From positions 21,851 to 85,850 of IMG/VR virus record IMGVR_UViG_3300033146_004974: a DNA stretch of 64,000 bases; one strand, 5' to 3'. A model generated the notes under the pieces. The model was not told the DNA's origin. It did not search any database and saw only the letters and a list, made by a program, of their open reading frames with translations. Source of the DNA: a virus. This document shows positions 22,836 through 64,000 of this stretch, one piece after another. Position numbers and translations under genes: made by a program. How positions within the stretch are numbered: position 1 is the stretch's first letter; every line of letters begins with the position of its first letter.

Positions 22836-23051
22836 ATGAAATTTTGCAAAGAATCGGAAGAAGTCAAATCGTTTGAAAATGATTTTGAAGCTTTTGTTTT
22901 ATATGAAGAATGGGGTGTTGATGATTGTTGTTTCAAATGTTGTTTTATTTATTTCGCATGTTGTTTTATTGCAGTTGATAATACGCCCGTCTTAGAGAAC
23001 CAAGTGGGACCTACACATGTAAGTTACAATTTCAGCAGAAATTGGATGTGA
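22836..23051 (+). CDS. MKFR...WQ family small protein (Cys-rich variant)
   Basis: MKFCK...VDN...FSRNWM. Confidence 0.7.
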   Translation: MKFCKESEEVKSFENDFEAFVLYEEWGVDDCCFKCCFIYFACCFIAVDNTPVLENQVGPTHVSYNFSRNWM

Positions 23052-23083
23052 TACAATAAAGTTGGCAAAAGACGAAAGTCTTC

Positions 23084-23137
23084 GAAACAGCACGAATCCT
23101 CGCCGTGTTTGACTCCTGAGCGCGGGTGTGACATTGT
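23084..23137 (+). promoter_or_regulatory. promoter with upstream GAAAC box
   Basis: GAAACAGCACGAATCC...TTGACT 23109, 17-nt spacer, CATTGT. Confidence 0.6.
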
Positions 23138-23187
23138 GAAGGTGCAAGCGAAGGAATATCACAAACACGTTGTACAAGGCGTTGACA

Positions 23188-23382
23188 ATGAAATTCCGTC
23201 AAGAATCAGAAGAAGTCGAATCGTTTGAAAATGATTTCGAAACTTTTGTTATATATGAAGAATGGGATATTGATGATTGTTATTTCGCATGTGGTCCTGC
23301 TGGAGTTGATAATACGCCCCACTTGGAGAATCAAGTGGGGCTTACACATGTAAGTTACAATTTCAGCAGAAATTGGATGTGA
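23188..23382 (+). CDS. MKFR...WQ family small protein
   Basis: MKFRQ...VDN...FSRNWM; close paralog of 22836. Confidence 0.7.
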   Translation: MKFRQESEEVESFENDFETFVIYEEWDIDDCYFACGPAGVDNTPHLENQVGLTHVSYNFSRNWM

Positions 23383-29464: not shown

Positions 29465-29671
29465 ATGAAATTTAAGGAGTTTTCACCAAATATTAATGCA
29501 GCTTTCACCGGATGGACGTTGTTCGAAACGATTAGAATAATGTCAAAGGAAGGTGAAGTGGTGATGAGATGCGAAAATATGGACTGGCTTTGGGAATATC
29601 AAGAGATTGATGGAATTAAGGTGCAAACCATATTTAAAATAGGGCAATATTTCTCAAGAGTTGAACAATAA
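29465..29671 (+). CDS. MKFR...WQ family small protein (isolated, divergent)
   Basis: MKFKE...MDW...FSRVEQ; CAATG start context. Confidence 0.6.
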   Translation: MKFKEFSPNINAAFTGWTLFETIRIMSKEGEVVMRCENMDWLWEYQEIDGIKVQTIFKIGQYFSRVEQ

Positions 29672-44733: not shown

Positions 44734-44782
44734 TTTGCGGCAAGTTCCCCAAAAACTTTTTTAACAATCAGTGAGGGTTAAA

Positions 44783-45619: not shown

Positions 45620-46489
45620 TTGATGTTATTCGAAATAGATTTGAAAGATTTTCCTTATAGAAATAGAGAAACGGTTTCTTACACTGAATTCAAAGTGTTT
45701 CAGGATTGTCAATTCAGACATTATATGTCTTTTATCAATCCTGAAACACCAATGGGAGAAAAGTTCCAAACTTTTTCTGGAATATTTGGAACAATGGTTC
45801 ATGAATATTTGAAAAAGATTGCTGTTAAGCAAAGAATGCTAAATCTTTTAAATCAAAGAAATTTAAATATTGCTTTTTATCAAAAAGAATTTAAATTCGA
45901 TTTTCTAAGGGAGCTTCGCAAAGCAAGTGTGCGCGAAGATTATGCCACAAAAAGATTGCTTAGTTCTCTTTCTGGGAAAAAGAATTACACAGAATTGAAA
46001 GAAATATTCATAAAGGCTGGGCAAAAGTTCTTGAATTATGGCCACTTTATTCTAACACAAAATTTAATTGTCGCAACGGAACTTGAATTGTACGACATGA
46101 TTCCTGATATTTCGCCAAATCTTCGTAAATTCAAGGGGGCAATTGATTTAGTCACATATGATAATGATTCCAAAAAGTTCGGAATCATTGAGTGGAAAAC
46201 TTCTTATAGAGAGGTGGAACACGATCCCCGTCAATTGTTGCTGTATAAATATTTTCTGGCAAAAGATTTGAAGCTCCCTCTTGATAGGTTCAAAACATAT
46301 TTTTGTGAATTTCGTGTCTCAACAATGGATCATAAATTTACAGAAGTTCCGTCGAATTCTTCTTATATGGAGAATGTTATGGAACCTTTGAAGAATTTTG
46401 TTCTAACTTTGAAGACTAAAAAAGTTTCGAGAAAAGTTGGGAAGAGATGTGATTTTTGCCGCTTTCAAGATCTTTGCGAGATGTTCTGA
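45620..46489 (+). CDS. PD-(D/E)XK nuclease (Cas4/AddB-like)
   Basis: SYT...CQFRHY, GTMVH, GAIDLV, IIEWKTS, QLLLY, CDFC...C. Confidence 0.85.
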   Translation: MMLFEIDLKDFPYRNRETVSYTEFKVFQDCQFRHYMSFINPETPMGEKFQTFSGIFGTMVHEYLKKIAVKQRMLNLLNQRNLNIAFYQKEFKFDFLRELRKASVREDYATKRLLSSLSGKKNYTELKEIFIKAGQKFLNYGHFILTQNLIVATELELYDMIPDISPNLRKFKGAIDLVTYDNDSKKFGIIEWKTSYREVEHDPRQLLLYKYFLAKDLKLPLDRFKTYFCEFRVSTMDHKFTEVPSNSSYMENVMEPLKNFVLTLKTKKVSRKVGKRCDFCRFQDLCEMF

Positions 46490-46701
46490 TGAAGTATAAA
46501 ATTACTTCTTTTTATATTCAAGAACAAGCGTTACGCGGGATTGGTGATCTTTTTGTAACATATGTTTTGCGAAGTGACAAACGTTGCACTTACAGCTTTC
46601 ATTTGAAACTGGTTGATAACCAATTTGAAGTTTTCAAAGTGGGGAATAGAATCAGGAAAATTTCGTCATTTTTACCAAATTTTTCAAGAGATTGGCAGTG
46701 A
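46489..46701 (+). CDS. MKFR...WQ family small protein
   Basis: MKYK...VDN...FSRDWQ. Confidence 0.7.
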   Translation: MKYKITSFYIQEQALRGIGDLFVTYVLRSDKRCTYSFHLKLVDNQFEVFKVGNRIRKISSFLPNFSRDWQ

Positions 46702-46922
46702 GGTTCCGCAACAAGTTTGAAATAACTGAAGATCTTGTAAACGATATGTGGAGATGCTCTTTTTTTACATTGGTTATCGAATGTTGGACATGTCTTCACA
46801 TGTTTGAAATAAATTCGAATATTAATGTAAGAATTGATTTATTAACATTTGAAAAATATGACAAAACCAAATCATCTTCGCTATATCCTGAATTTCATAA
46901 ATTTTTAAGGAGTTGGCAATGA
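46698..46922 (+). CDS. MKFR...WQ family small protein
   Basis: GTG start, RFRN...IDL...FLRSWQ. Confidence 0.7.
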   Translation: MRFRNKFEITEDLVNDMWRCSFFTLVIECWTCLHMFEINSNINVRIDLLTFEKYDKTKSSSLYPEFHKFLRSWQ

Positions 46923-47125
46923 AATTCAGAAACATATATCATTCAGCGACAAGTCACATTTCGTTATTCACGTGCCGCCATATTAAGTTTCACACTTCTT
47001 TGGGAAGAAAAATGATTTTTAAAGATAACACAATAGATTATCAATATGAATGGAACACTGATTTTGATGGTTCGTCAAAGAAATTTTGGTATCCATTTAG
47101 ACAATTTGACAGGGTTCATCAATAA
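46919..47125 (+). CDS. MKFR...WQ family small protein
   Basis: MKFRN...IDYQ...FDRVHQ. Confidence 0.7.
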   Translation: MKFRNIYHSATSHISLFTCRHIKFHTSLGRKMIFKDNTIDYQYEWNTDFDGSSKKFWYPFRQFDRVHQ

Positions 47126-49752: not shown

Positions 49753-49779
49753 AGCCACGCGAAAGCGTGGCTTTTTTTA
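49753..49779 (+). terminator. intrinsic terminator
   Basis: AGCCACGC-GAAA-GCGTGGCT followed by a T run. Confidence 0.88.
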
Positions 49780-49983: not shown

Positions 49984-51498
49984 ATGAGCGCCACAAAGCT
50001 TTCCGATTCTTTTTTTAATTCTTTTTCAGACTTCGAGAAAAAAGAAGTCTTAAAAGAGGAGTTTGACAATTACTTTTTTGAATCAACGTCGTTTCAAGAA
50101 AGTTCGTTCAAAGATTGCGAATTCGTCAATTCACAAATGGGACATTCAATTTTTGATGAATGTTCATTCAAAGATGTTTCGTTCAAAAATTGCGATCTAA
50201 CTTTCGCAATTTTTCGCAATTGTTCATTCCAAGATTGCGAATTTGAGCGTAATCAAATGAAGCAAGCGAGCTTTGAAAGATGTGAGATTTTGGCCAATTT
50301 CATTGATAATAATGTCGAAGGAATGGACATTGTTTCGTCCGTTCTGAAAGCTGCAATCTTCGAACACAAAGATTGCAGGATTCAGAATTCAGAAATTGTT
50401 GGGGACATTGATCTTGACGCTTCCAACATTTATGAATGCGTCAAAATTGACAAAGTTTCAAAACCGTTTGAAAAATATCATTCAAACGGTGTTCTTTTTT
50501 TTGGACAATTCACCGGAAAAATGGTGTACCAGAAAAGGAATATGAATTTTACTCTAGAAACAATGTCAGTCTTTGACGTTCGTTTGACAGAAAATGGCAA
50601 AAAAATGTTTGCCAAGATTCAAAAGTTTGGGAATATCGTTGAAATTTTGATCGATGTTTCCCAAGGAATCAAAAAAGATGTTCATGTCGAATTCCTATCC
50701 TTTTTGCAAGGGAATGTGCAATATGCCTTTTCCAAAAGAATTAAAAAAACCTTGCCTGAGTTCTTTGAAAAAGGTGTTCAATATCGCAAACCAAGGAATG
50801 AAGGGTTAAAAACTTGGAAAGATCACAAATTCCACAAGATTGCAATGCAATTCATTTTGAACGAGATAGGAACAGAATTTCTCGACTTTCCAAAAAAAGA
50901 ACAAGATAAAACTTTAGCTCTGGTTATCAGAGCATATGAGGGTTACCTTGCTCAGGAAAAAGCAAAGAAAGTCCGTGATTTTGCTTTGACGATTGAACTT
51001 GGGAAAAAAGAGGATCTTTCCAAGTTTCAAAAAATGGATTATCCATACACAAGCCAAATGCTAGAATTTTTGGCAATCAATCGAGCAATAGCCGCTGGTT
51101 TTGTTGATCTTGGCGAAGCAAAACAGGCTTTTAGATACGCTATGAATTCCCAGAATTCTTTTTCCAAAACTTTGTCCCTTGTTATGAATAAAATTCAACA
51201 TGTTATGCCTTTTGTTAAAGGTATGACACCATGGGGCAAAAAGATGGAAAATGCTTATATTGTTCGAGAAGTCGCAACAAAAAAAGAGGAGATTGCAATA
51301 ACTTTCCCGATCAATATCAACAAGGCGAGTTCAGAAGTGCTTGCAAAACTTCCCGGAATCAAAGAAGGTTTGGCAAAAAAGATTGTCAACGAAAGAATGA
51401 AGGGGAATTTTGTGAAGGTCGAAGATCTACGCTTTGTGAAGGGAATTTCAAGAGCGAAGGCTAAATCTTTGCAGGCGAAGGGGTTTGCGACGGTTTGA
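49984..51498 (+). CDS. pentapeptide-repeat protein with C-terminal ComEA-like helix-hairpin-helix domain
   Basis: SFQES SFKDC EFVNS...FRNC SFQDC repeats; ININKASSEVLAKLPGIKEGLAKKIV...DLRFVKGI. Confidence 0.8.
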   Translation: MSATKLSDSFFNSFSDFEKKEVLKEEFDNYFFESTSFQESSFKDCEFVNSQMGHSIFDECSFKDVSFKNCDLTFAIFRNCSFQDCEFERNQMKQASFERCEILANFIDNNVEGMDIVSSVLKAAIFEHKDCRIQNSEIVGDIDLDASNIYECVKIDKVSKPFEKYHSNGVLFFGQFTGKMVYQKRNMNFTLETMSVFDVRLTENGKKMFAKIQKFGNIVEILIDVSQGIKKDVHVEFLSFLQGNVQYAFSKRIKKTLPEFFEKGVQYRKPRNEGLKTWKDHKFHKIAMQFILNEIGTEFLDFPKKEQDKTLALVIRAYEGYLAQEKAKKVRDFALTIELGKKEDLSKFQKMDYPYTSQMLEFLAINRAIAAGFVDLGEAKQAFRYAMNSQNSFSKTLSLVMNKIQHVMPFVKGMTPWGKKMENAYIVREVATKKEEIAITFPININKASSEVLAKLPGIKEGLAKKIVNERMKGNFVKVEDLRFVKGISRAKAKSLQAKGFATV

Positions 51499-51525: not shown

Positions 51526-51551
51526 AAGGCACCTTCGGTGCCTTTTCTTTT
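51526..51551 (+). terminator. intrinsic terminator
   Basis: AAGGCACC-TTC-GGTGCCTT followed by TTCTTTT. Confidence 0.8.
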
Positions 51552-51571: not shown

Positions 51572-51772
51572 ATGTTGGACATTCAATCAACCGCTTTGTA
51601 TCTTGATTCCATCTCAAAGATCCCGCTGGAAAAGAGAGAGGAAGCATATCAGATTTTGTTAAAAATCCCTGGATTCAATGCGCGATTGTTGATTGCAATC
51701 AATGAGTACATTAAGATCAGAAACTTGAGGGGGAACTTGAAAGACTTGGTGATGCCAGAAACAGAACAGTGA
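51572..51772 (+). CDS. hypothetical protein leading the array operon
   Basis: AGGA RBS; GTGA overlap into the first array member. Confidence 0.55.
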   Translation: MLDIQSTALYLDSISKIPLEKREEAYQILLKIPGFNARLLIAINEYIKIRNLRGNLKDLVMPETEQ

Positions 51773-51966
51773 GATACCGAAGATATGTTTCTTTGACAAG
51801 CAATCCTCTAATTTCATCAGCAGAATTTGAAACGTCAACCAAAGCAATTTTGGTTAACAAATTGAGTGATCCGACAAAAAAATGGATTGCAATTGATTAC
51901 CAACCTGAGATTTACTGGGGAAAGAGAGCTATTGAACAACTTTCTTTTGATAAGGCTTGGCAATGA
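51769..51966 (+). CDS. MKFR...WQ family small protein
   Basis: MRYR...IDYQ...FDKAWQ. Confidence 0.75.
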   Translation: MRYRRYVSLTSNPLISSAEFETSTKAILVNKLSDPTKKWIAIDYQPEIYWGKRAIEQLSFDKAWQ

Positions 51967-52184
51967 GGTCCAAAGATTTTAAAAAATGGAACAAGTTCAA
52001 TAATTATAGAATTCAGACAACTGAATATCCTGGGAGCATTGGTGAGCATTTCAAAAGCACAATCGTGCATGGCGAAAAACCATTTGATTTTATTGATTTC
52101 CAGCCAGATATTGTAAACTATTATTCAACATTTTACAGGGCAGTTAAAGAAGGAAAAATTTATTGTTCAAGAGAGTGGCAATGA
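51963..52184 (+). CDS. MKFR...WQ family small protein
   Basis: MRSK...IDFQ...SREWQ. Confidence 0.75.
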   Translation: MRSKDFKKWNKFNNYRIQTTEYPGSIGEHFKSTIVHGEKPFDFIDFQPDIVNYYSTFYRAVKEGKIYCSREWQ

Positions 52185-52411
52185 TGCGTTTTAGAAAAGA
52201 GTCGGAAAAGATTGATAACTTGATCAATCGACATTATTTCTCTTTTAATCATCAAGCTCAATTTGAAGTTTTGAGTGCAACCCTTATTCGTGGTGCAAAG
52301 CCCAACTCCAATGAGAGAAAAAATTTTATAATATTTGTGGAATTAAGCACGATGGATTATATCCAACTTCTTTATGGCAAAACAGGCCCCTTCTTAAGGA
52401 AGCGGCAGTGA
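52181..52411 (+). CDS. MKFR...WQ family small protein
   Basis: MMRFRK...MDY...FLRKRQ. Confidence 0.75.
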   Translation: MMRFRKESEKIDNLINRHYFSFNHQAQFEVLSATLIRGAKPNSNERKNFIIFVELSTMDYIQLLYGKTGPFLRKRQ

Positions 52412-52617
52412 AATTTAGAACAACAATGAGCAGAGTTTCTTGCCCTTTTGAGCTAATTTTTGTCACAAGAGTTCTTGCTAACAGCAAAATAAAATTCTCC
52501 ATATTTTCAGGAATGTGGGAAATTGATTTGATAAATTTTTATACGCAAAAAGGTGAAGAGATAGAAAAAATGAATTTGGCAGATTTATGGCGTTATGAAT
52601 GGGAGGTTTTCCAATGA
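52408..52617 (+). CDS. MKFR...WQ family small protein
   Basis: MKFR...IDL...WEVFQ. Confidence 0.7.
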   Translation: MKFRTTMSRVSCPFELIFVTRVLANSKIKFSIFSGMWEIDLINFYTQKGEEIEKMNLADLWRYEWEVFQ

Positions 52618-52796
52618 AGTTTAGAAACAAATATTGCTTACACGAAAAATCTTTAAAAAAAGATTACTTATTTATAAGTGCTCAAATTTATCAAGATGGA
52701 CCAGCAAATTCATTCATTAATTTTCAACAATGGTGGACTCTTGAAAGAAAGGTTGGATTGTTTTTAGACAAAATTGGCGACAGAAATTGGCAATGA
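52614..52796 (+). CDS. MKFR...WQ family small protein
   Basis: MKFRN...INFQ...DRNWQ. Confidence 0.75.
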   Translation: MKFRNKYCLHEKSLKKDYLFISAQIYQDGPANSFINFQQWWTLERKVGLFLDKIGDRNWQ

Positions 52797-52817
52797 TTGT
52801 TGGAAAGAAGGCGGACC

Positions 52818-53048
52818 ATGAAATCAAGAAGCCAGTTTAAAAACACATCTGAAAGATTCGTTAAAGACAGCATGTTTGAAGCGATGGTTGTTAAAAAATA
52901 TGAGTGGAGAAGCACAACAGGAAAATCAAAAATGCTTGTTTCATTTGGCTGGGGATATGTTGATGAACTTGAATTTGTTAAGTTCAATGGAACAAAACTC
53001 TCAAATTTAAACAATTTCTGCTACAAACATTCAAGAGAATGGCAATGA
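52818..53048 (+). CDS. MKFR...WQ family small protein
   Basis: MKSR...VDE...SREWQ. Confidence 0.75.
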   Translation: MKSRSQFKNTSERFVKDSMFEAMVVKKYEWRSTTGKSKMLVSFGWGYVDELEFVKFNGTKLSNLNNFCYKHSREWQ

Positions 53049-53266
53049 TTTTCAGGAATTTGTCTCAAAATGTTTATGCTTATAGGCCATATGATCCAAC
53101 CATCATTCAACATAGAATATTCGAACATCCATATTCTTTTAAAACTTGTGAATTCACTCATGGATTCTGGACTGATCATCAAGTTTTGGTAAATTTCGGT
53201 GACATTCCAACAAATTTCTTTGGAGAAAATATTTCAAAACGATATTTTTCAGGAGCTTGGCAATGA
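53045..53266 (+). CDS. MKFR...WQ family small protein
   Basis: MIFRN...TDHQ...FSGAWQ. Confidence 0.75.
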   Translation: MIFRNLSQNVYAYRPYDPTIIQHRIFEHPYSFKTCEFTHGFWTDHQVLVNFGDIPTNFFGENISKRYFSGAWQ

Positions 53267-53751
53267 GAAGATTTTTATTTTTAGATTTTGATGGAGTTTT
53301 GAATTCTATTCATTGGTTTAAAACCAGGAGAAGATTTGATCCCATGTTGAATGGAGTTTATTCCGAAGAATTATCGGAAGATTATGATTTAGATCCGTTA
53401 TGCGTAGGATTCCTTAACAAAATTGTAACAAACATTGAAAATCTTGAAATTGTCATCTCGTCGGCGTGGAGAATTTATAAATCCGTTTCTTATTTGGATT
53501 CAATATTGATGAGAAACGGATTTGTTGGAAAAGTATATTCCAAAACTCCTTTTTTACGACATGAAGGGAGAGAAGAGGAAATTTTCTCTTGGTTGCAAAA
53601 AATTGATGATGAGTATTCATTTGTCATTTTGGATGATGAATATATCATGGAACATCCGAGATTTGTTCAAACAAATGTGGAAACTGGTTTGACTGAAGAA
53701 AATGTTCAACAAGTTATCAAACTTTTTCAAGAGGCAGACCATGAATGTTAA
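53263..53751 (+). CDS. HAD-superfamily phosphatase (Swiss-Army-Knife RNA-repair HAD type)
   Basis: FLFLDFDGVLN, IVISSAWR, REEEI, FVILDD, GLT. Confidence 0.85.
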   Translation: MRRFLFLDFDGVLNSIHWFKTRRRFDPMLNGVYSEELSEDYDLDPLCVGFLNKIVTNIENLEIVISSAWRIYKSVSYLDSILMRNGFVGKVYSKTPFLRHEGREEEIFSWLQKIDDEYSFVILDDEYIMEHPRFVQTNVETGLTEENVQQVIKLFQEADHEC

Positions 53752-54013
53752 AAAGAATCTGCAATATTACAAAAAAGATTGCCCCATTTCTCAATTGCCA
53801 AAAGAAATTCGCCATTTTTGGAGCATGGTCAGAAAAAGACAGAAGATTGAAGTTTCAAGAGAATTGGCAAGAGAACTTCGTTTGGCACATTATGTCACTC
53901 ATTATGTGGTTGACAAAAGAGTTTACAAATTCTATCCTCAAACAAAAGAGATTGGCGAATTTCTTTGGCCATACATTGGGGAACATTGCACATTTATTGA
54001 AAATGAAGTTTAG
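53741..54013 (+). CDS. hypothetical protein (not a family member)
   Basis: GAGG RBS; ORF track. Confidence 0.55.
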   Translation: MNVKKNLQYYKKDCPISQLPKEIRHFWSMVRKRQKIEVSRELARELRLAHYVTHYVVDKRVYKFYPQTKEIGEFLWPYIGEHCTFIENEV

Positions 54014-54209
54014 AAAAGATAATGAAGAATTCATGGAAAAAGCATTAGGGATATATAAGATGAGTTTTGCTAATGTTGTGTTGATTGAAAATGAAGATTG
54101 TTCATTCTTCTTTGCGACCTCTAACATGTTTTCAATCGATCACCTACCAGAGATCTTTCTTAATGAAAGAAATGTTTGGCCAAACGAATTCACAAGATCT
54201 TGGCAATAA
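54003..54209 (+). CDS. MKFR...WQ family small protein
   Basis: MKFRK...IDHL...FTRSWQ. Confidence 0.75.
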   Translation: MKFRKDNEEFMEKALGIYKMSFANVVLIENEDCSFFFATSNMFSIDHLPEIFLNERNVWPNEFTRSWQ

Positions 54210-54220
54210 AATGGAAGATC

Positions 54221-54427
54221 ATGAGATATAGAAACATTTTTAAAATGATACAATACCGAGTCAACAAACAATATGGAAGATTTTGGCATTATACAATCGA
54301 TCCCGTTAATACTGCTGAGCCAGCTCATGTTGATGTTGATGATATTGAAATCGATTGTGTTATGACATATGATACTGATTCGGAATATTTTATGTATCTC
54401 TTTCCAATTGACAGATCTTGGCAATGA
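54221..54427 (+). CDS. MKFR...WQ family small protein
   Basis: MRYRN...IDC...IDRSWQ. Confidence 0.75.
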   Translation: MRYRNIFKMIQYRVNKQYGRFWHYTIDPVNTAEPAHVDVDDIEIDCVMTYDTDSEYFMYLFPIDRSWQ

Positions 54428-54624
54428 AGTTTAGAAAATCTTTTGAGATGGTAAGAACATATTGTTTCATTGAATTTGAAACAAGAATTATTATAACAGT
54501 ACCTCACATTGCGCCCAATAGAATGGAAATAAAAGTCACATTTCATAAGACACTGGATTATCTAAAACGTATTGAATTTGGTTATGGAGTAAGAAGAAGT
54601 AATTTTTCTCATGAGGCTCAATGA
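54424..54624 (+). CDS. MKFR...WQ family small protein
   Basis: MKFRK...LDYL...FSHEAQ. Confidence 0.75.
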   Translation: MKFRKSFEMVRTYCFIEFETRIIITVPHIAPNRMEIKVTFHKTLDYLKRIEFGYGVRRSNFSHEAQ

Positions 54625-54815
54625 AGTTCCGTCAAGATATAACAACAACAAAATATAAAAAATTGGGCAACAAATATGCTATACTCTTTCACATCATTAT
54701 ACATTATGGCGAAAGTCATTTGGGAACTGTCCTTAAAGATATCGATTTTGTAACCTCTCACGCAAATGCAGGCAAATATAGAATTACCTCAACTTCTTCA
54801 AAAAATTGGCAATAG
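54621..54815 (+). CDS. MKFR...WQ family small protein
   Basis: MKFRQ...IDF...SKNWQ. Confidence 0.75.
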   Translation: MKFRQDITTTKYKKLGNKYAILFHIIIHYGESHLGTVLKDIDFVTSHANAGKYRITSTSSKNWQ

Positions 54816-54848
54816 AAAATCATGATCTATTGGACAGCGGAATGGGCC

Positions 54849-55055
54849 ATGAAATTTAAGAACATTTTTAAAATAATACAATACCATATTAGCAGGCAAG
54901 ATGGAAGATTCTGGCATTACACAATAGATTTTAGTGATGTTCTTGGGCCTGCTCATGTTGATGTTGATGACGCAGAAATAGATTTCTTAATGACGTATGA
55001 CATCGATTTGGAATACTATATTTACCTCTTACCATTTGATCAGAATTTGCAATAA
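54849..55055 (+). CDS. MKFR...WQ family small protein (paralog of 54221)
   Basis: MKFKN...IDFL...FDQNLQ. Confidence 0.75.
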   Translation: MKFKNIFKIIQYHISRQDGRFWHYTIDFSDVLGPAHVDVDDAEIDFLMTYDIDLEYYIYLLPFDQNLQ

Positions 55056-55063
55056 GAGAATAT

Positions 55064-55108
55064 ATGAAGTTTCAAAGAGATGAGGTTAAGAAAAGGGATT
55101 GGCAATGA
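55064..55108 (+). pseudogene. minimal ('empty') family member, 14 aa MKFQRDEVKKRDWQ
   Basis: ATG AAG TTT CAA AGA GAT GAG GTT AAG AAA AGG GAT TGG CAA TGA. Confidence 0.65.
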
Positions 55109-55314
55109 TGTTTAGAGATCTTTTAGAGAATACTTCAGAAACTTATAATTGTGGTTGGGAAATATTCTCAACAACTTGCCCAGTATTTCTAAGAAAGAAT
55201 CCCGAACGAACTTATTTAAATGTTGATTATTTAGTTGAATACGAAGCATGGGAACATCTTACTCATAGGATTGTTTATAGCTACAAACAAAATTTTGTAC
55301 GAAGTTGGCAATGA
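55105..55314 (+). CDS. MKFR...WQ family small protein
   Basis: MMFRD...VDYL...FVRSWQ. Confidence 0.75.
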   Translation: MMFRDLLENTSETYNCGWEIFSTTCPVFLRKNPERTYLNVDYLVEYEAWEHLTHRIVYSYKQNFVRSWQ

Positions 55315-55535
55315 ATTTTCAAAAAATTGGATGCGTTGTGAAATTTAGAAAAGAAATGGGTAAATATATTCAAGAAGTTCGTTCAATCGTATTTGAAAGT
55401 TACTCTCTTTCTTTTAGCAAATACGATTTTCTAATTGGACCTACTTTTGGTATTACAATGGATTATCAAAAAATTCATTTTAAATCAGGCTTTAAAAGTG
55501 GAACGTATCCTGGCTTTAAAAGAGAATGGCAATGA
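55311..55535 (+). CDS. MKFR...WQ family small protein (alternative GTG start 55338)
   Basis: MNFQ..VKFRK...MDYQ...FKREWQ. Confidence 0.75.
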   Translation: MNFQKIGCVVKFRKEMGKYIQEVRSIVFESYSLSFSKYDFLIGPTFGITMDYQKIHFKSGFKSGTYPGFKREWQ

Positions 55536-55726
55536 AATTCAGAAAAGAGTTGAAAGGCAATTTTAGCCTTTATTCGACAACATTATTCCACACAATCATA
55601 CCAATTTCTTATGACAAAACAAGAGTGGCAGCATGGAGCTTTTCTGATATTGATTATCAATATGGGTTAAATTGTTATGGAGAATTTATTGAACAGATAT
55701 TTGCTTTTTCAAGAGATCGGCAATGA
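55532..55726 (+). CDS. MKFR...WQ family small protein
   Basis: MKFRK...IDYQ...FSRDRQ. Confidence 0.75.
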   Translation: MKFRKELKGNFSLYSTTLFHTIIPISYDKTRVAAWSFSDIDYQYGLNCYGEFIEQIFAFSRDRQ

Positions 55727-55938
55727 AATTTAGAAAAGAGGTTGAAAATGAAGCACAACTGAAAACAACCCCTTTTCTATTTGTTCCTTTTGCAATTATG
55801 TTTCATGAATACCATATTAAAGAAGAGAACAGGGGCTTGCTTTGCTATAGAAGAGTTATTGATCACCTTTGGGCTTTCAATGAAAGCTACCCATTATTCA
55901 ATCAACGAGAATTCTTTTTTGGCAAAAATTGGATGTGA
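55723..55938 (+). CDS. MKFR...WQ family small protein
   Basis: MKFRK...IDHL...FGKNWM. Confidence 0.75.
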   Translation: MKFRKEVENEAQLKTTPFLFVPFAIMFHEYHIKEENRGLLCYRRVIDHLWAFNESYPLFNQREFFFGKNWM

Positions 55939-55948
55939 TGAGGACAAA

Positions 55949-56239
55949 ATGAAAGAATATGAACTGAGGGGAGATTTAAGGGGATATTATGGATACCACT
56001 CTTTTCAAAACTATCCGAACACGGAAGAATCCGGCTGGTGGTTGGGGTTATCCTTTCCAGTCCTAGAGGACCGGGGAGGAGAGCAGTTTTTACACACTCC
56101 AAGACAATTAGAAGAACCCTATTTAATAGTGGGAGATGCTGTTAGGGGGGAAGTAGAGATTAGAGGCAAGAAAAGACAAGTCCGCACCATGACCATATGG
56201 TGTAACAAAAGGGAAATAATCATTGCAAAAATTCTCTAG
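55949..56239 (+). CDS. hypothetical protein (not a family member)
   Basis: GAGGA RBS; MKEYELRGDLRG... Confidence 0.6.
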   Translation: MKEYELRGDLRGYYGYHSFQNYPNTEESGWWLGLSFPVLEDRGGEQFLHTPRQLEEPYLIVGDAVRGEVEIRGKKRQVRTMTIWCNKREIIIAKIL

Positions 56240-56283
56240 TCTCTGCCTTTTTCTTCTTAAGTTAACACACTTTAGGGAATACA

Positions 56284-56496
56284 ATGAAATTTCGTGACAT
56301 TTTGCCTCTTCAAATTCCAAATCCAATGCTGAATTCTTTCTTAACATTTGGAATCAAACTGCCTTTTGTTTTCGGTCATTATTGTTATGATTTGGGGTTC
56401 ATGTACAATCAGGTTGATATTCTTCCAGAACCATATCCTGAAACCTCTGGGGCAAAACCTTTCCGCGCCTTGAGATTTGAAAAAAGTTGGCAATGA
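56284..56496 (+). CDS. MKFR...WQ family small protein
   Basis: MKFRD...VDIL...FEKSWQ. Confidence 0.75.
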   Translation: MKFRDILPLQIPNPMLNSFLTFGIKLPFVFGHYCYDLGFMYNQVDILPEPYPETSGAKPFRALRFEKSWQ

Positions 56497-56696
56497 AATT
56501 TCGTCAAAAATTTGCTAATAAGAAGCCATTTTTGCTTGCACAAATAGTGACATATGCAATTTTCACATACAATGTTAAATTTTACAGATTACTAGGATCT
56601 GGGATTAGTATCAACCCAGTCTTAAAAACGGTTGACTATTTGAATATTGAACAAATGTTTTCAAGAAAAACTCTCTTTTCAAAAGATTGGCAATGA
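56493..56696 (+). CDS. MKFR...WQ family small protein
   Basis: MKFRQ...VDYL...FSKDWQ. Confidence 0.75.
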   Translation: MKFRQKFANKKPFLLAQIVTYAIFTYNVKFYRLLGSGISINPVLKTVDYLNIEQMFSRKTLFSKDWQ

Positions 56697-56719
56697 TTCA
56701 TGCCGACGAAGGAGGAAAC

Positions 56720-56920
56720 ATGAAATTTGTTTCTAAATTTGATGAAATCAATTTTTCCTGTTACGATAATTTTTTGATATATACAATTTCTCCATATTGT
56801 GACGATTTATGTTGCTCATTGGGAACCTTCATTGAAGTGAGACCAATTCTAAAGAATGTTGATCATATCATTCTAGATTATGTTGTGAGGCCAACACCAT
56901 TTGTGAAAGAATTTATGTGA
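56720..56920 (+). CDS. MKFR...WQ family small protein
   Basis: AAGGAGG RBS; MKFV...VDHI...FVKEFM. Confidence 0.7.
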   Translation: MKFVSKFDEINFSCYDNFLIYTISPYCDDLCCSLGTFIEVRPILKNVDHIILDYVVRPTPFVKEFM

Positions 56921-56928
56921 GATGCAAA

Positions 56929-57120
56929 ATGAAATTCAGAGAAACTGAAAAAGATTCTGCAAAATTGAGCACAACTTTTTTTGACAGTTTGGTTGTTGCT
57001 TTCGCATTCCGAAGTGGACTCTATTTCGGACTTAAATATTTTGATTCGCTCCCATATGTTATAGGGGTGAAACCAGCATTTAAGAGGGAAAAACATAATT
57101 TTAACAGAGGTTGGCAATGA
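56929..57120 (+). CDS. MKFR...WQ family small protein
   Basis: MKFRE...FDSL...FNRGWQ. Confidence 0.75.
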   Translation: MKFRETEKDSAKLSTTFFDSLVVAFAFRSGLYFGLKYFDSLPYVIGVKPAFKREKHNFNRGWQ

Positions 57121-57137
57121 AATTTCGTGGCATTTAG
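57117..57137 (+). pseudogene. truncated family stub MKFRGI*
   Basis: TGGCA ATG AAA TTT CGT GGC ATT TAG. Confidence 0.55.
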
Positions 57138-57169
57138 TGCTTTAAAAAAAGTAATATAATGGAACACTA

Positions 57170-57364
57170 ATGGAATATCGTAATAAATTAAAAAACTCGA
57201 TATGGAAGTGGTCATGGGAAATATTTGTAACAGGTTCTATTTCCCGCAATTCCGAACATAAAACTATTGTTCAAAGATATTCAATTGATTTATTGCCTAA
57301 AACTTCTGAAGACGAAATGTATTTACCATTTGTTGTCCTACGTTTTTCAGGCAAGTGGCAATAA
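57170..57364 (+). CDS. MKFR...WQ family small protein
   Basis: MEYRN...IDLL...FSGKWQ. Confidence 0.75.
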   Translation: MEYRNKLKNSIWKWSWEIFVTGSISRNSEHKTIVQRYSIDLLPKTSEDEMYLPFVVLRFSGKWQ

Positions 57365-57418
57365 GATACAAAATGGATGGGGGGATATTCATTCCTTCGG
57401 TCTTTTAAAGAGGCATTG

Positions 57419-57616
57419 ATGCGTTTCACAAAAGAAATGGGAATAAATTACGAACACGCCAACATTCTTTTCGAGCACTGGGTGATGACATTTAAATTGA
57501 AGTTCCACAATCCAACTTTGCTTGAAACAATTGATTATCAATCAATAATTTACGATAAGGCAGATTATTTGAAAAGTTTATCATTGTTCGAGTCTTTTTC
57601 AATAAATTGGCAATGA
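57419..57616 (+). CDS. MKFR...WQ family small protein
   Basis: MRFTK...IDYQ...FSINWQ. Confidence 0.75.
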   Translation: MRFTKEMGINYEHANILFEHWVMTFKLKFHNPTLLETIDYQSIIYDKADYLKSLSLFESFSINWQ

Positions 57617-57638
57617 ATCCAACAATTTTGCTTCATTC

Positions 57639-57756
57639 TTTTGAGCCAGGCTTTTGCCTGGCTTCAAAACGTTTGGGCCAAATGTTCGCCATCATCATCA
57701 TTGCATCATCTTTGCGAACAATTGCCAACTTTTTTGCACGGATTACCGTGCAAAAG
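57639..57756. terminator. two hairpins between convergent transcription units
   Basis: TTTTGAGCCAGGC-TTTT-GCCTGGCTTCAAAA and TTTTGCACGG-ATTA-CCGTGCAAAA. Confidence 0.7.
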
Positions 57757-60385
57757 AATGAAGAATTCTGATTCTGATTCGGCTTTCATTCAACATTCCA
57801 TTTTGTTTCAGAAACTTTCTCGCTTGTCCTTGGGATTGCCAATCAAGTTCTCCATTTTTGAGAAGCAGTGCGACAATTTCTGGATTTCCTTTTTTCAATG
57901 CTTTCCGCATTGTTCTTTCCTTGGGCCTGAGCCAACCTTTTTGTGCAAGAAATTGAAGAATTTCTATATCATCGATATAAAGATTTGTTAAATAATCAAA
58001 TGAAATATTTTTTTGTCGATAATATTTTTCAAGTTTTTCTGCCAGATCAAAAAGGTGGTTTTCCAATAGTTTTTGTAGAATAATATCGACAAAATGATAA
58101 CTAATTTTTGTTATCTTTTTATAACCACCTTTTTGGAAGAAATCGAGTGCGGTCTGATTTTTGTAAGTAAGTGCCCAATAAAGCAAATGATCCATTTCAT
58201 TTTCTGGGAGATATTTGAAAGCAAGAGGGATTTTCTTGCTGTTCTGCAACATCAACAATCTCAAATAATGTTCCCAACCTTCGTGCTGATCAAAATTTTT
58301 CAGGACTTTGATAAATGGAAAATCATCTGCCTCGTCATCAAGAATTGCTCTTATGACTCTTGAATCGCCAGCTCTTTCAGTATTGAACAAAAATTCAAAA
58401 GCTTCTTTATCTCCATAATTAATTGCTGTTATGAGGAAAATCAACGCATCATTTTCAAATTTTGGGGATTTGTTCGAGAAGTATGCCAACAATTTATTGA
58501 TTGGGTAAGAATGTTGAAACATGATTGCTGATAGAATGGCATTTTTATTGTAAGATGTTTTTTCATCTTTGAATAAGAAATTGATGACTTCCTCATTGTC
58601 ATATTCCACAGCATTTTTCAATACTATTCCTCTAGGATCTTTGCTTAGATTATTGGACAAAAGATGATTGATAACTTCCTCATTTTCTTCTTCCACAGCA
58701 ATTGCCAAAATTTTTCCTTCAGGATCTTTGCTCAGATTATTGGACAAAAGATGATTGATAACTTTTTCATTTTCATATTCCATGGCATTTTCCAAAGCTC
58801 TTCCTTCAGGATCTTTGCTCAGATTATTGGATAGAAGATGATTAATAACTTTTTCATTTTCTTCTATCACGGCATTTTTTAAGGCTCTTCCTTCGGGATC
58901 TTTGCTCAGATTATTGGACAAAAGATGATTGATAACTTTTTCATTTTCATATTTTACAGCAAGTCTCAAAGCTGTTCCTCCAGGATCTTTGCTTAGATTA
59001 TTGGATAGGAGATGATTGATAACTTTTTCATTTTTATATCCCACAGCATTTGCCAATTGCAATCCGAACTCATCAGAGAGAGTTGGTTGTTGTAAAAGAA
59101 AATCAACACCTTCATGATATTTTTTTCGCATAGCATATGTTAGACTCTCCGAATCTTCAATGTTAGCACCATGATTCAAAAGAAGATCTGCAATCTTCAA
59201 TTGTCTGCTTTCGATTGCTGCTCCCAATGGTTGATTGCTGTTGAAATTGATATCAGCACCGTCTTCAACAAGTTCTTTCACTTTTTCAAAATTGAGTTCT
59301 TTGATTGCGTCAATGAGCAATTCGCCACGTTTTTCAACTTCTTTTCGGACATCTTTTTGGTCCAAATCTGGAGTTCCGAACGTGAAACGATTTTCAATCC
59401 CTCCAAAATCGTTTTCGATTCCAACATTTTGAACAAGATCGTGCAATGAAAGGTCTTCATAAGCTCCACCAACAAGTTTGATCTCATTTTTGTCAGCAGT
59501 TTTCAACCATTCAAGTCCCTCTTGTTGATTGGTTATTAGAAACTTTGTCAATTCTCTTTCTGTTAATGAGCGCAAATTATGGTCATCACTATAAAACTTT
59601 GACCATGTGTAAACATTGTGTTTAAAATCTTTTGAAGCAAGTCTTCTGACTCTTGTCATCCCCTGGGTTTTGATCCCGTTAAAACCACGTTTTTTGTCAT
59701 AAAGAATCTCATCATTCGCAAAAGATTCATTGTTAAAGTTTTCTTGAATCCACTGTGCATCCTCGTCTGAGATATTGTAGACCATGAATCCATTGCTTCC
59801 AACTGCTTCTGAAATTGCACAATGGAAGAAAGCTTGTCCTTCCGTGTGACAGTTTGTTACAACATGGTCTGACATTTTCATGATGTCGATCGGATGTCTG
59901 GTCATTAAAAGATATCCACTTCCATCACGGTTTGTCTTCCAAGTTTGATAAGCTTTGCTATCCATGAAACGTTTAAACCAACCATCCTTGTCCAGTTTGA
60001 ACTTTCTAAAAAACCTGTTCAAACTTATCTTTTTTATTTTTGCTTTCGCTCTCCCATTGCTTTTTCTCATTGCATATTCATTTGGTTCTTCTAGCCATTC
60101 GACAATCCCCGTTTCAAAAGTTTTGTTCTCATCAGCTCCAATTTCTTCCAATTTGTTTCTAATCCTTTTGAAAGCTTTTTTGACTTTGGGATTTAAAACA
60201 TCTCCTTCCAATTTGAAAAGTCTTCTATTGCTTGGAAGCAGTTTTGAAATGCTTTTCATTCCATATTTAAAATTGTCCGAATCTGTTACAGTCTTGAAAC
60301 TCTTATGGATGTCCAAAGCAGTTTGTGAAACTTCATTCAGCCTGCTTCGTTTTGGACGAAGCAGCTTCTTCATTTTTATTTTCAT
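57743..60385 (-). CDS. large ankyrin-repeat protein (880 aa)
   Basis: VKELVEDGADIN..PLGAAI..IADLLLNHGANI; five near-identical 29-aa repeats; the only long minus-strand gene. Confidence 0.85.
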   Translation of the reverse strand: MKIKMKKLLRPKRSRLNEVSQTALDIHKSFKTVTDSDNFKYGMKSISKLLPSNRRLFKLEGDVLNPKVKKAFKRIRNKLEEIGADENKTFETGIVEWLEEPNEYAMRKSNGRAKAKIKKISLNRFFRKFKLDKDGWFKRFMDSKAYQTWKTNRDGSGYLLMTRHPIDIMKMSDHVVTNCHTEGQAFFHCAISEAVGSNGFMVYNISDEDAQWIQENFNNESFANDEILYDKKRGFNGIKTQGMTRVRRLASKDFKHNVYTWSKFYSDDHNLRSLTERELTKFLITNQQEGLEWLKTADKNEIKLVGGAYEDLSLHDLVQNVGIENDFGGIENRFTFGTPDLDQKDVRKEVEKRGELLIDAIKELNFEKVKELVEDGADINFNSNQPLGAAIESRQLKIADLLLNHGANIEDSESLTYAMRKKYHEGVDFLLQQPTLSDEFGLQLANAVGYKNEKVINHLLSNNLSKDPGGTALRLAVKYENEKVINHLLSNNLSKDPEGRALKNAVIEENEKVINHLLSNNLSKDPEGRALENAMEYENEKVINHLLSNNLSKDPEGKILAIAVEEENEEVINHLLSNNLSKDPRGIVLKNAVEYDNEEVINFLFKDEKTSYNKNAILSAIMFQHSYPINKLLAYFSNKSPKFENDALIFLITAINYGDKEAFEFLFNTERAGDSRVIRAILDDEADDFPFIKVLKNFDQHEGWEHYLRLLMLQNSKKIPLAFKYLPENEMDHLLYWALTYKNQTALDFFQKGGYKKITKISYHFVDIILQKLLENHLFDLAEKLEKYYRQKNISFDYLTNLYIDDIEILQFLAQKGWLRPKERTMRKALKKGNPEIVALLLKNGELDWQSQGQARKFLKQNGMLNESRIRIRILHSFAR
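58580..59045 (-). repeat. 87-bp coding tandem repeat, ~5.3 copies
   Basis: NEKVINHLLSNNLSKDP.G..L..A unit; GGATCTTTGCT.AGATTATTGGA recurs on the + strand. Confidence 0.9.
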
Positions 60386-60744: not shown

Positions 60745-60806
60745 GGTTGTGCAGAGGTTGTGCAGAGGTTGTGCAGAGGTTGTGCATAAGTTGCGCATAA
60801 GTTGTG
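60745..60806. repeat. 11-bp tandem repeat
   Basis: GGTTGTGCAGA x3 followed by degenerate copies. Confidence 0.9.
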
Positions 60807-61518
60807 AATGGGTGCAGAACAAGTTGGAAAAGGTTGGGTGATTTTTGGAATTTTCCAAAAAAAGTCAAGCACTTTCTGCCATTTTTTGCATACCAGTTCC
60901 AAAAAAAGTTGATAATTCTTCTACAATTCTTTTAAAAAGTCATAAAAAATTAAAAAGCCTGGTACTCCACTCCCCTTCGGCACCATTTTAGCACCCTACC
61001 CCTTGGGGACTTTGCACCCCACTTTTTTTCATGTTTTTTAACAAAACGTGTATTGTAACCCATTAGAATCATTGATTTTTTAGGGGGGGGTCAAGCAACA
61101 TTTGGCCAAAATGCCTAACACATTGGTTTTAAATGGTTTTTCACGTTTTTCACATTTTTTCAAAACAAGGTTTTCGACCATCTTTTGACCAATTGAAGTG
61201 TCAAAAAGGGGTTAAAACGGTGTTTTTGGGCAAAGTGAGCGAACATGTTTGGTCGCTATTGCCTAAAGACTCCAGAAGATGTGTCCAATTGTCACACCCC
61301 ATTTGAGGCAGAAATTGTCCAATTTCTTTGGAAAAAGTGGGGCATGATCTTTTTGCGAAGCATTAATTAGTCTCCTCAAAATAAAAAAGTTTTGAAATGG
61401 AATCAATGAAATCACGACATTTTTGTCATAGTTCCCCAGAATTCTGCAACTTTTTGCGCACTTTTGGGAAAGAAGTTTTAGACTTTTTAAAAAAACATTA
61501 AAAACAAAAACTTTTGCA

Positions 61519-61875
61519 CTTAAATTAATGGTTTATAGTTAACCATTTGTTTAACTGTTAACCAACCAGCTTTTTGTGAACATTTTTCACAGTTTCCAAA
61601 CTGGTTAACTATTAACTCTTAAATTAATGGTTTACAATTAACCAACCAGTTTTTTGTGAACATTTTTCACAGTTTCCAAACAGGTTAACTATTAACTCTT
61701 AAATTAATGGTTAATTATTAACCATTTGTTTAACTATTAACCATTTGTTTAACTGTTAACCAACCAGTTTTTTGTGAAAATCTTTCACAGTTTCCAAAAT
61801 GGTTAACTATTAACTCTTAAATTAATGGTTTACAATTAACCAACCAGTTTTTTGTGAACATTTTTCACAGTTTCC
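61519..61875. repeat. AT-rich complex direct repeats with 4 palindromic TGTGAA-N5-TTCACA sites (candidate origin/terminal signal)
   Basis: Sites start at 61575, 61655, 61773 and 61853; TTAAATTAATGGTT and GTTAAC motifs repeated. Confidence 0.85.
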
Positions 61876-62289
61876 CCCATTGTTTAATAACGATGAGCAT
61901 AGATGTTTCAAAACATTTAAACAAAATGTGCAACATACTGTTTTTTAAGAGTTTTTTAAAACTACTGAAAAGTTTTTCAGTTCAAAACAGTTGGGTCATA
62001 TCGTTAAACATCATCGTCAACGGGCTTGAGCAGCCTTGAAAAGAACGATGATGAAAAGTCTTTACCTTCCTTTATCTTTTTGTTCAAGGCGTTCTGAGAG
62101 CCTCACAGAAATTGCATCATTCGGTTAACGGTTAAATGGCCCACAATTGGCCCACAATCGCTCACAAACAAACGTGCACTAATATAAAGGGCCAAGTTCA
62201 AGAGCACCACAGCGCAAACCAGAGCGGTTTATGACGATTTACACTCTCTTTTTGCCCATTTTTAGCTCATTTTTGAGCAGCTTTCATCC

Positions 62290-62372
62290 CACACATTTTG
62301 TCGAACACCTTGGCACACATTTTGTCGAACACCTTGGCACACATTTTGTCGAACACCTTGGCACACATTTTG
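62290..62372. repeat. 24-bp tandem repeat x3.5
   Basis: CACACATTTTGTCGAACACCTTGG. Confidence 0.95.
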
Positions 62373-62843
62373 GCAAGGTGGACAAATATTCAGTAAAATA
62401 TGTTACGCATGTGAATCATTGTGCGCGCCATTGTAAGGTGTTGTTTTACAAGAGTTTTTCATTTTGTTACAGTTTCTCACGCAAGGTGCGCAAAGTTATT
62501 CGCAATACAGCATTGAATCTTGACGCTGGGTTGAACAAGATGATGAGACAATGCGCGAGGATTCGCCAATCAATGAGCGTAAGTCATTGATTAATAAGGC
62601 GAAAAGAGGTTTTGAAACTATTTTGGCAAAATTGCGGTGTTGGCTCGCAACTCGCATTAAGAGTACATGTCGCGACAATGAGACAAGCCAAAAAAGATTG
62701 TCGCGAAAATGGCGGAAAGGGGTTGCAAACGTGGCTCATTCCGCTATGATGAGAGACACAAGGGAAGCACGATGGTTCGCGGATGGTTCGCGAACCGGGC
62801 AAGCTTCCCAAAATTGCGCAACAATTGCGCAAAGGTTAGAAAA

Positions 62844-63404
62844 ATGTCTGACAACACCAACACAATCGTTGCTTCCGTTGCTTCCGTTGCTTCCTCTTCC
62901 GTTGCTTCCTCTTCCGTTGCTTCCTCTTCCGTTGCTTCCTCTTCCGTTGCTTCCGCGAAAGAGCGGATGGTTGCGCTCCAAGCTGCTCTCCAGCGCGCAA
63001 TGAGCGCTGGTGACTTCGGCGCAATGGCGCGCCTCACTTTGGCCAGCGCCAAGCTGGCCAAAGAGGTTGTGACCGAGGAGAACGGTGAAAAAATCACCGT
63101 CCTCAAGAGACGCGCCGCCGCTTTCCGCACGGCGTCTGCGCTTTTTGCCAGTGCATCCGCGCTTTGCCGCGCCGAGAGTGAAGGGCTTGGAGCCACCTTC
63201 CAAGGCAGAAGCGGCGCAGAGGTTCTCAATCCAGACGCGGCGGAAGCGTTCATGCAGGCCGCGCTCGATGCCCTGCTCTGCCCAGAGGTTAAGCACCTTC
63301 ACGGGGTACCAAACCCCTTTGTTGAAGTTCGGCGGGTAGCGCCCGTCGAACTTGAGGAAGAACTTGAGGAAGAAGAAGAAGAAGAGGAATTGCTTGAGGA
63401 GTGA
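62844..63404 (+). CDS. GC-rich hypothetical protein with VASSS repeats and poly-E tail
   Basis: AAAGG upstream of ATG; Ala-rich; 15-bp GTTGCTTCCTCTTCC repeats. Confidence 0.6.
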   Translation: MSDNTNTIVASVASVASSSVASSSVASSSVASSSVASAKERMVALQAALQRAMSAGDFGAMARLTLASAKLAKEVVTEENGEKITVLKRRAAAFRTASALFASASALCRAESEGLGATFQGRSGAEVLNPDAAEAFMQAALDALLCPEVKHLHGVPNPFVEVRRVAPVELEEELEEEEEEEELLEE

Positions 63405-63742
63405 GCGATTCCGCGAGCGCTCAAGCGCTCGCACCTTAACCTAAGCTTTGGAGATTTTTTTTCCAAGGTTTGGTTTAAGGTGCGCAAATTTTGTGCCAAT
63501 AGTGCTACACCGGCACTATCCCCCTCCCAGGGTAGACCTTTGCGCAAAATTTGCAATAATGCGCAACAATTGCGCGAAGGGGTTGACAACCTCTTGTGTC
63601 ACTCTTTTTTTGTCCCAAATATTTAACCAAATGGTTTTGGAATGAATGTTGCATGAGACCTTTCAAACTTTGATGCAAAAAAGCACGCATAAATTCCCAG
63701 ATTTTCCTATGCAATTTATTCACAAATGTTTTGTTACAACAT

Positions 63743-64000
63743 TCCTTTCAAACTTTGATGCAACATTCCTTTCAAACTTTGATGCAAAAAACCTTTCAAA
63801 CATTTGATGCAAAAATCCTTTCAAACATTTGATGCAAAAATCCTTTCAAACATTTGATGCAAAAATCCTTTCAAACATTTGATGCAAAAATCCTTTCAAA
63901 CATTTGATGCTAAAATCCTTTCAAACATTTGATGCTAAAATCCTTTCAAACATTTGATGCTAAAATCCTTTCAAACATTTGATGCTAAAATCCTTTCAAA
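63743..64000. repeat. 25-bp tandem repeat array running off the window end
   Basis: CATTTGATGC(A/T)AAAATCCTTTCAAA x8 from 63801, preceded by slightly shorter variants; no spacers. Confidence 0.95.

Follow-up and report, generated by a model that had tools for sequence, protein, structure and literature searches.

An open reading frame of only 14 codons (mini-ORF) at 55064-55108 on the + strand, lying in an array of small phage genes, is in our judgement rather probably the vestige of one of the array family's own copies, which has lost its interior and probably persists as a joint, or relay, between the genes on either side. The window analysed here is a stretch of 64,000 nt (bases 21,851-85,850) from one virus record, which has 85,850 nt in all and contains no Ns. 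The mini-ORF consists of an ATG, 13 sense codons and a TGA, and its product is MKFQRDEVKKRDWQ. Its TGA (55106-55108) overlaps the ATG (55105-55107) of the next family member (MMFRDLL...VRSWQ), forming an ATGA joint. The earlier note had described a 14-aa member made of two conserved termini and joined by ATGA to the next gene, and this description is confirmed by the sequence, the translation and scoring matrices. The absence of the variable interior and of the Asp anchor, also claimed there, is confirmed by alignments with the family (A1) and with the canonical junction and the start at 55311 (A3).

The start matrix was built from the 25 full-length members (first 18 nt of each), with the mini-ORF excluded, and the end matrix from the last 24 nt of the family genes. 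The start of the mini-ORF (MKFQ) ranks 20th among the 85,833 + strand positions of the whole record; members take 14 of the top 20 positions, and of the other five, three (57117, 55338 and 23188) are family-related. The start is therefore of the family type by this rank and by its MKF, but residue 4 is Gln instead of the family Arg. The claimed RDWQ end is likewise real in part: it retains K-R-D-W-Q-TGA and the ATGA, and over its last ~15 nt it resembles the family and forms a true junction, but the preceding part shows no such resemblance, the Phe normally found at -6 is out of place, and the end ranks 32nd on the end matrix, under most members. ORFs of this kind would be expected by chance about 0.01-0.02 times, a rough estimate from the matrix ranks (~3 unrelated positions in 85,833 scoring as high, and 20 in-frame codon positions upstream of each of ~20 junctions).

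Little lies between the two ends. The mini-ORF has 14 aa against 60-79 aa in the members, and nothing in it corresponds to D41 of alignment A1, the Asp of the h-D-[YFH]-h motif, which lies some 25 residues before the C-terminus. In alignment A3, the family start is directly joined to the end motif, with an extra 18-19 nt inside the latter and no recognisable interior; the middle of the mini-ORF is unique sequence. An ATG at 55080 (MRLRKG...) was considered as a second family-like start within the mini-ORF and rejected, as its rank on the start matrix (54) is at noise level. The predicted RNA fold of 55030-55140 is weaker than that of shuffled sequences (z=+1.41), and this locally unstructured state is as expected of an initiation region.

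The MKFR...[RK]xWQ family and its junctions

The family comprises 25 paralogous genes of 60-79 aa with an M-K-F-R start, a nearly invariant Asp (h-D-[YFH]-h) and an F-x-[RK]-x-W-Q end (alignment A1), distributed over two arrays (Table 1). They are real coding genes, since dN/dS is 0.225 for the paralog pair 54221-54427 and 54849-55055, which are identical at 41 of 68 aa and 149 of 204 nt. Neighbouring members overlap by 4 nt at 13 of the 24 member-to-next-member junctions, TGA is the stop codon in 20 of the 25 genes, and the junction consensus extends over ~30 nt, with an imperfect conserved DNA core of about 20-30 nt. The main array is interrupted by a HAD_SAK_2 gene (53263-53751) and by two unrelated small ORFs (53741-54013 and 55949-56239). 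The HAD_SAK_2 gene, encoding a "Swiss Army Knife" RNA-repair HAD domain, begins at a canonical junction ATG and has no family termini. At the final junction of the array, the ATG begins a non-family ORF of 52 aa (MNPTILLHSF..., 57613-57771), a doubtful gene, which overlaps the 3' end of a convergent 880-aa gene. Strong terminator-like hairpins stand ahead of the main array, one in its immediate vicinity (Table 1) and a further one at 49753-49772, while a terminator scan found none of similar quality inside it. The main array is thus likely one operon or transcription unit.

Table 1. Features of the arrays, the genes flanking the mini-ORF and the relics (positions in the window).
Feature	Position	Strand	Remarks
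Cys-rich paralogs (two)	22836..23382	+	64-71 aa; MKF[CR]...FSRNWM; upstream of radical SAM gene 23520-24314 (Pfam Radical_SAM)
Second array	46489..47125	+	three members of the same family
Terminator-like hairpin	51526..51544	+	strong; just upstream of the main array
Main array	51769..57616	+	22 members
15-aa ORF	52793..52840	+	MIVGKKADHEIKKPV; begins at a junction ATG and overruns the start of the next member (52818)
Possible third start-plus-end relic	53847..53870	+	LKFQENWQ; TTG replaces ATG, GAG replaces TGA
Upstream member	54849..55055	+	68 aa; paralog of 54221-54427
Downstream member	55105..55314	+	69 aa; start overlaps the stop of the mini-ORF
Second start-plus-end relic	55311..55337	+	junction ATG, then end motif out of its native frame; stop lost
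Junction ATG with in-frame extension	56693..56719	+	nine codons (MIHADEGGN); carries a strong SD for the MKF start 56720
Start-only stub	57117..57137	+	MKFRGI and stop; begins at a canonical ATGA junction; start matrix rank 13

The two termini seem to be constrained in different manners. The MKFR start is conserved as protein, because the synonymous codons of the start motif match genome usage (Lys2, p=0.78; Phe3, p=0.60; Arg4, p=0.16); for Arg4, two codon families are in use across 18 of the 25 members. At the other end, where Ser stands at -5 it is encoded by TCA in nine of ten cases, compared with 28% of the Ser codons in the genome (p=8e-5). This bias suggests an added constraint at the nucleotide level, as would be expected if the end codons double as the next initiation region. 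The array starts pair with the canonical anti-Shine-Dalgarno (anti-SD) sequence better than random ATGs do (median -3.3 vs -1.9 kcal/mol, p=5e-4) and do not differ significantly from the other genes of the phage (-3.3, n=31, vs -5.6 kcal/mol, n=55; p=0.17). Overlapping and spaced starts are also alike (median -3.8, n=17, vs -3.3 kcal/mol, n=14; p=0.90), and the idea that spaced starts carry stronger SDs was rejected. These alike SD strengths give no support to a special dependence of the array on coupling.

Promoter functions of the junction were also considered. The junction was rejected as a sigma-70 promoter, the first hexamer TTGGCA being flagged among the canonical member junctions at 46913 only, and it was rejected as a sigma-54 promoter by eye only, the -12 GC being missing. 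The RNA ligase gene starts (within 36540-36570) with MKFHKF behind an SD-plus-spacer that closely resembles the array junction. The array junction could be one form of an initiation region that this phage uses generally.

Two Cys-rich paralogs far upstream of the arrays (Table 1) have termini as in the array family and are 80% identical to each other, and their comparison with A1 by hhalign covered 64 columns with a probability of 88% (E 2.9e-6). They may be substrates of the adjacent radical SAM enzyme. Another ORF, 29465-29671, was considered as a lone family member and rejected (hhalign probability 4.8%).

Relatives of the family are extremely scarce. None of the 23 members tested matched a named family in Pfam or PHROGs, where the inserted HAD gene was matched and one weak PHROG match of unknown function was obtained, and the family had no match in NCBIfam, PADLOC, PDB sequences or Rfam. 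The ESM Atlas model was poor (pLDDT 0.39) and gave no usable match. A search of 1.84 billion representatives with the family profile returned 18 matches, all of them the window's own proteins. In a cluster look-up, nine of ten proteins were singletons on one contig and the tenth was absent from the collection, and two single-protein searches matched just the queries or their own paralog. A 504-aa neighbour protein had no relative in IMG/VR; a 671-aa neighbour protein had 521 relatives (~45-51% identity), and none of the 80 such loci examined carried family ORFs. No family ORFs were found at 68 loci of metagenome contigs, either.

The junction 19-mer was found at seven loci in IMG/VR, of which one, on contig G001, is real, and a looser 17-mer (48 loci) again left G001 as the sole carrier. 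G001 is the only other record with the family, having two full members and one partial at its contig end. It is hardly related to our record otherwise (eight tblastx segments); in the profile comparison with the array family only the last seven columns align, and one 19-nt junction string is identical. In addition, seven records of hydrothermal-vent run X1 (share 0.06) were compared, and one of them, 244 nt long, is near-identical to 54277-54520 (98% identity, four differences), a coverage that leaves 55064-55108 outside. The earlier note had advised looking for a filled allele in related genomes; none of the collections searched held a relative close enough to show such an allele or a swap.

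Other relics and competing explanations

The mini-ORF is not the only decayed element. The array also contains the stub at 57117, whose stop lies 32 nt ahead of the start of the next member, the 15-aa ORF at 52793 and the extension at 56693, in which the SD reaches -11.7 kcal/mol. G001 has a 6-aa stub (MKFKNV and stop; L003 1800-1830, - strand) at a canonical junction, beyond which a family-like body with an h-D-H-L-P motif continues in another frame, that is, a frameshifted member. More closely comparable are two sites where a family start directly meets an end motif. On the + strand of the 85,850-nt record, just three sites show [A/T/G]TGAAN immediately before TTTCAA (53847, 55064 and 55311), all in the array, while TTTCAA by itself, which is part of the family end motif, occurs 155 times on that strand. 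Gln stands at position 4 in all three relics and at no regular start among 24 (Fisher test made post hoc, p=3e-4). The relic at 55311 forms a 9-aa N-terminal extension (MNFQKIGCV) fused to a member that truly starts at GTG 55338, which ranks 15th on the start matrix. The one at 53847 lies in a frame open for 86 codons upstream of member 54003 and overlaps the 90-aa ORF 53741-54013; it is counted as possible only, because a junction nhmmer profile missed it at E<=10.

These relics bear on whether the mini-ORF was preserved on purpose, so to speak. The earlier note had suggested an in-frame deletion kept to preserve translational coupling and had taken random deletions in relatives, with no preference for in-frame, termini-preserving ones, as the contrary outcome. 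The mini-ORF itself agrees with the suggestion, being termini-only, in frame and provided with the ATGA joint. Its sister relics do not: besides the mini-ORF, which alone is a free ORF, the relic at 55311 has its end motif read out of the native frame and is fused to the next gene, and that at 53847 has lost both ATG and TGA. These relics show no preference for the in-frame, termini-preserving outcome. The in-frame state would arise by chance in about one of three cases, and the other two start-plus-end relics did not retain it. That the mini-ORF has been "kept" is plausible. Similar minimal members were sought elsewhere, and 6-aa stubs having the start only turned up in both the array and G001, but no second free ORF with start and end. 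A local deletion or rearrangement, as behind several other relics in the array, would have made the mini-ORF. Deletion between direct repeats at the 5' and 3' ends of a gene was considered and dropped, because the similarity of these ends within family genes was not above control (p=0.19 and 0.65), and no specific deletion mechanism is supported by this test.

An unlikely reading is that there never was a full gene at this site and that a ~40-nt joint (end plus start motif) was partly duplicated or slipped. The 45 nt parse almost wholly into junction-type sequence, the junction ATG of the 55311 relic is at once followed by another end motif and another start, and insertions of 21-27 nt beside junctions are common in the array. 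However, the spacings (53 nt from stop to stop and 41 nt from start to start) misfit a single clean tandem copy, the internal ATG at 55080 does not rise above noise, and the junction nhmmer profile gives only a marginal match, at 55032-55080 (E=9.1). Moreover, the first ten codons resemble the N-termini of members past the core, with a 29-nt local match to the start of 55723. Collapse of a full-length gene by the metagenome assembler is scarcely credible. The record is a single metagenomic contig with many copies of a short repeat, which makes such an error conceivable, but the repeated core is short and imperfect, as described above, the middle of the mini-ORF is unique, the record lacks Ns, and like relics occur at two other sites and in G001. 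It is equally hard to believe in a functional 14-aa peptide of both terminal motifs, for example a decoy or regulator for whatever recognises the ends. The use of two codon families for Arg4 with genome-like codon choice does imply that the ends may be recognised as protein; yet the peptide has Gln at that very position, lacks the Phe at -6 in its place and exists in no second copy as a free ORF. The peptide by itself probably has no function.

A different type of explanation takes the termini as sites of exchange. The earlier note had raised the possibility that interiors are swapped as modules between fixed ends, and this was not borne out: a leave-one-out profile recognised 12 of the 25 termini-trimmed interiors (<=4 of 100 shuffles as good), eight gave no signal, and five of 300 interior pairs had blastp E<0.05. 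This residual homology fits old duplication and divergence without any need for swapping, and module swapping of the interiors is of low probability. We also regard as quite improbable a general scheme in which start and end motifs are in-register recombination joints, the relics, joined at the T-run of the Phe codon, are excision footprints, and the array turns over in a cassette-like manner. If it were true, loss and gain would take place inside an unbroken chain of coupled frames, with the junction conserved between nearly unrelated phages. Very improbable is the corresponding reading of the mini-ORF as an empty acceptor site, left by precise excision between ends that serve as joints for the exchange of interiors in register. 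One join signature is indeed common to the three start-plus-end relics, and the 19-nt junction string is identical in G001 although little else of the family aligns there. On the other hand, exchange is seen in no pair of related genomes, homology can still be detected in nearly half of the interiors, the conserved core of DNA is short, and the MKFR start is conserved as protein and not as a DNA site. In addition, recombination at flanking joints, according to the PeSL model as it is outlined for T4-type phages (PMC2839356), leaves a single joint and not a start followed by an end.

A possible coupling relay and its known counterparts

If the mini-ORF is the vestige of a family copy, its position between two members may account for the form in which it survives. 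The preceding gene stops 8 nt ahead of the mini-ORF, at a degraded junction (NLQ and TAA, without an overlapping ATG), and the 5' part of the mini-ORF would provide a start 8 nt behind that stop. The last codons of the mini-ORF make up the ribosome-binding region of the 55105 gene, and the final ~15-20 nt would thus serve both as this region and as the ATGA joint. The 3' part could not be lost, because the initiation region and the joint of 55105 would go with it. Without the mini-ORF, 49 nt would separate the previous stop from the 55105 start; with it, there are an 8-nt gap and a 4-nt overlap. This replacement makes a coupling relay physically sensible: the short ORF, if translatable, would pass ribosomes from 54849-55055 to 55105-55314 by termination-reinitiation. 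The 55105 start has a moderate SD (duplex energy with the canonical anti-SD, -5.1 kcal/mol), and the gene might also start de novo from it. We infer from the arrangement that a full-length copy formerly stood at the site, that the mini-ORF is translated and that coupling depends on it.

Experiments on translational coupling lend some plausibility to this relay. Among overlapping gene pairs of E. coli and Haloferax, 13 of 14 tested were strictly coupled (Huber et al., 2019; PMC6728339). In the six gene pairs tested for this in a later study, gaps of ~20 nt left almost no coupling, and in two E. coli pairs the upstream gene's final 15 nt were sufficient for it (Huber et al., 2023; PMC10666635). 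This near loss of coupling across ~20 nt is the reason why a short ORF that bridges the gap would be of consequence at our site. The mini-ORF and 55105 resemble such termination-reinitiation pairs in lying on the same strand with a 4-nt ATGA overlap, and in the cases reported a very short upstream frame can suffice. They differ in that the upstream ORF is a 14-codon remnant and not a gene, and coupling is here deduced from nucleotide sequence. The mini-ORF is, in our opinion, a gene remnant that probably still acts as a coupling relay.

Two phage systems are similar in other respects. The ORFan cassettes of the hyperplastic regions of T4-type phages are likewise rows of small ORFans with a repeated short motif, the PeSL, at which gene gain and loss were proposed (Arbiol et al., 2010; PMC2839356). 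However, PeSLs as described there are intergenic promoter-plus-terminator units of ~100 bp, and the array repeat is a coding sequence of ~30 nt without stem-loop. The sigma-70-like promoter and terminator stem-loop that define a PeSL are both wanting in our junction, with its fold of z=+1.41 and its hexamer at 46913 only. Moreover, recombination in the PeSL account yields one chimeric motif, in contrast to the start plus end of the mini-ORF. The internal proteins of T4 are diverse small phage proteins sharing just a capsid targeting sequence, as they are reviewed by Rao and Black (2010; PMC3012670), and the N-terminal MKFR of the array appears comparable in being conserved at the protein level. 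Unlike the T4 proteins, as presented in that review, the array members are conserved at both ends, and the motif is merely 4-6 residues.

As a marker of array evolution, the mini-ORF indicates that clean loss of an interior is possible with retention of the start and the stop-start joint. Constraint is strongest on this joint, as judged from the 19-nt junction string that is identical in two otherwise almost unrelated phages. The mini-ORF is also a natural minimal case for the question whether a 14-codon ORF suffices to relay ribosomes between genes. Taken alone, it is a small thing of modest interest; the family with its strongly conserved joint is functionally unexplained and is the more interesting target.

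The phage record and the neighborhood of the arrays

The record encodes a DnaB-like helicase, ribonucleotide reductase, DnaE-like polymerase, GroEL, RNA ligase, CCA-adding enzyme and DNA ligase. It represents part of a large and very divergent phage, whose DnaE-like polymerase is at most 32% identical to that of any GenBank phage. Nearly all genes lie on the + strand and have ordinary Shine-Dalgarno sites. The neighbors of the array, namely an ArdC-like protein, a PD-(D/E)XK nuclease, a pentapeptide-repeat protein and an ankyrin protein, fit an accessory or host-takeover region. The small-gene arrays are flanked by an ArdC-like antirestriction protein/metallopeptidase (44771-45598) and by a protein with pentapeptide repeats and a helix-hairpin-helix (49984-51498), and these flanks fit an anti-defence neighborhood.

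The 880-aa ankyrin-repeat protein (57743-60385, - strand) contains 5.5 tandem repeats of 87 nt (29 aa) with 83% identity at 58580-59056, and its N-terminal part belongs to the handful of regions that tblastx matches in G001. The end of the record (60745-64000) is rich in tandem repeats (11 nt x5.6, 80 nt x2.2, 24 nt x3.5 and 15 nt x5.7); a 25-nt x10.4 repeat extends to the last base, and GC climbs to 45% in this region. This stretch may represent a genome end or have a regulatory role.
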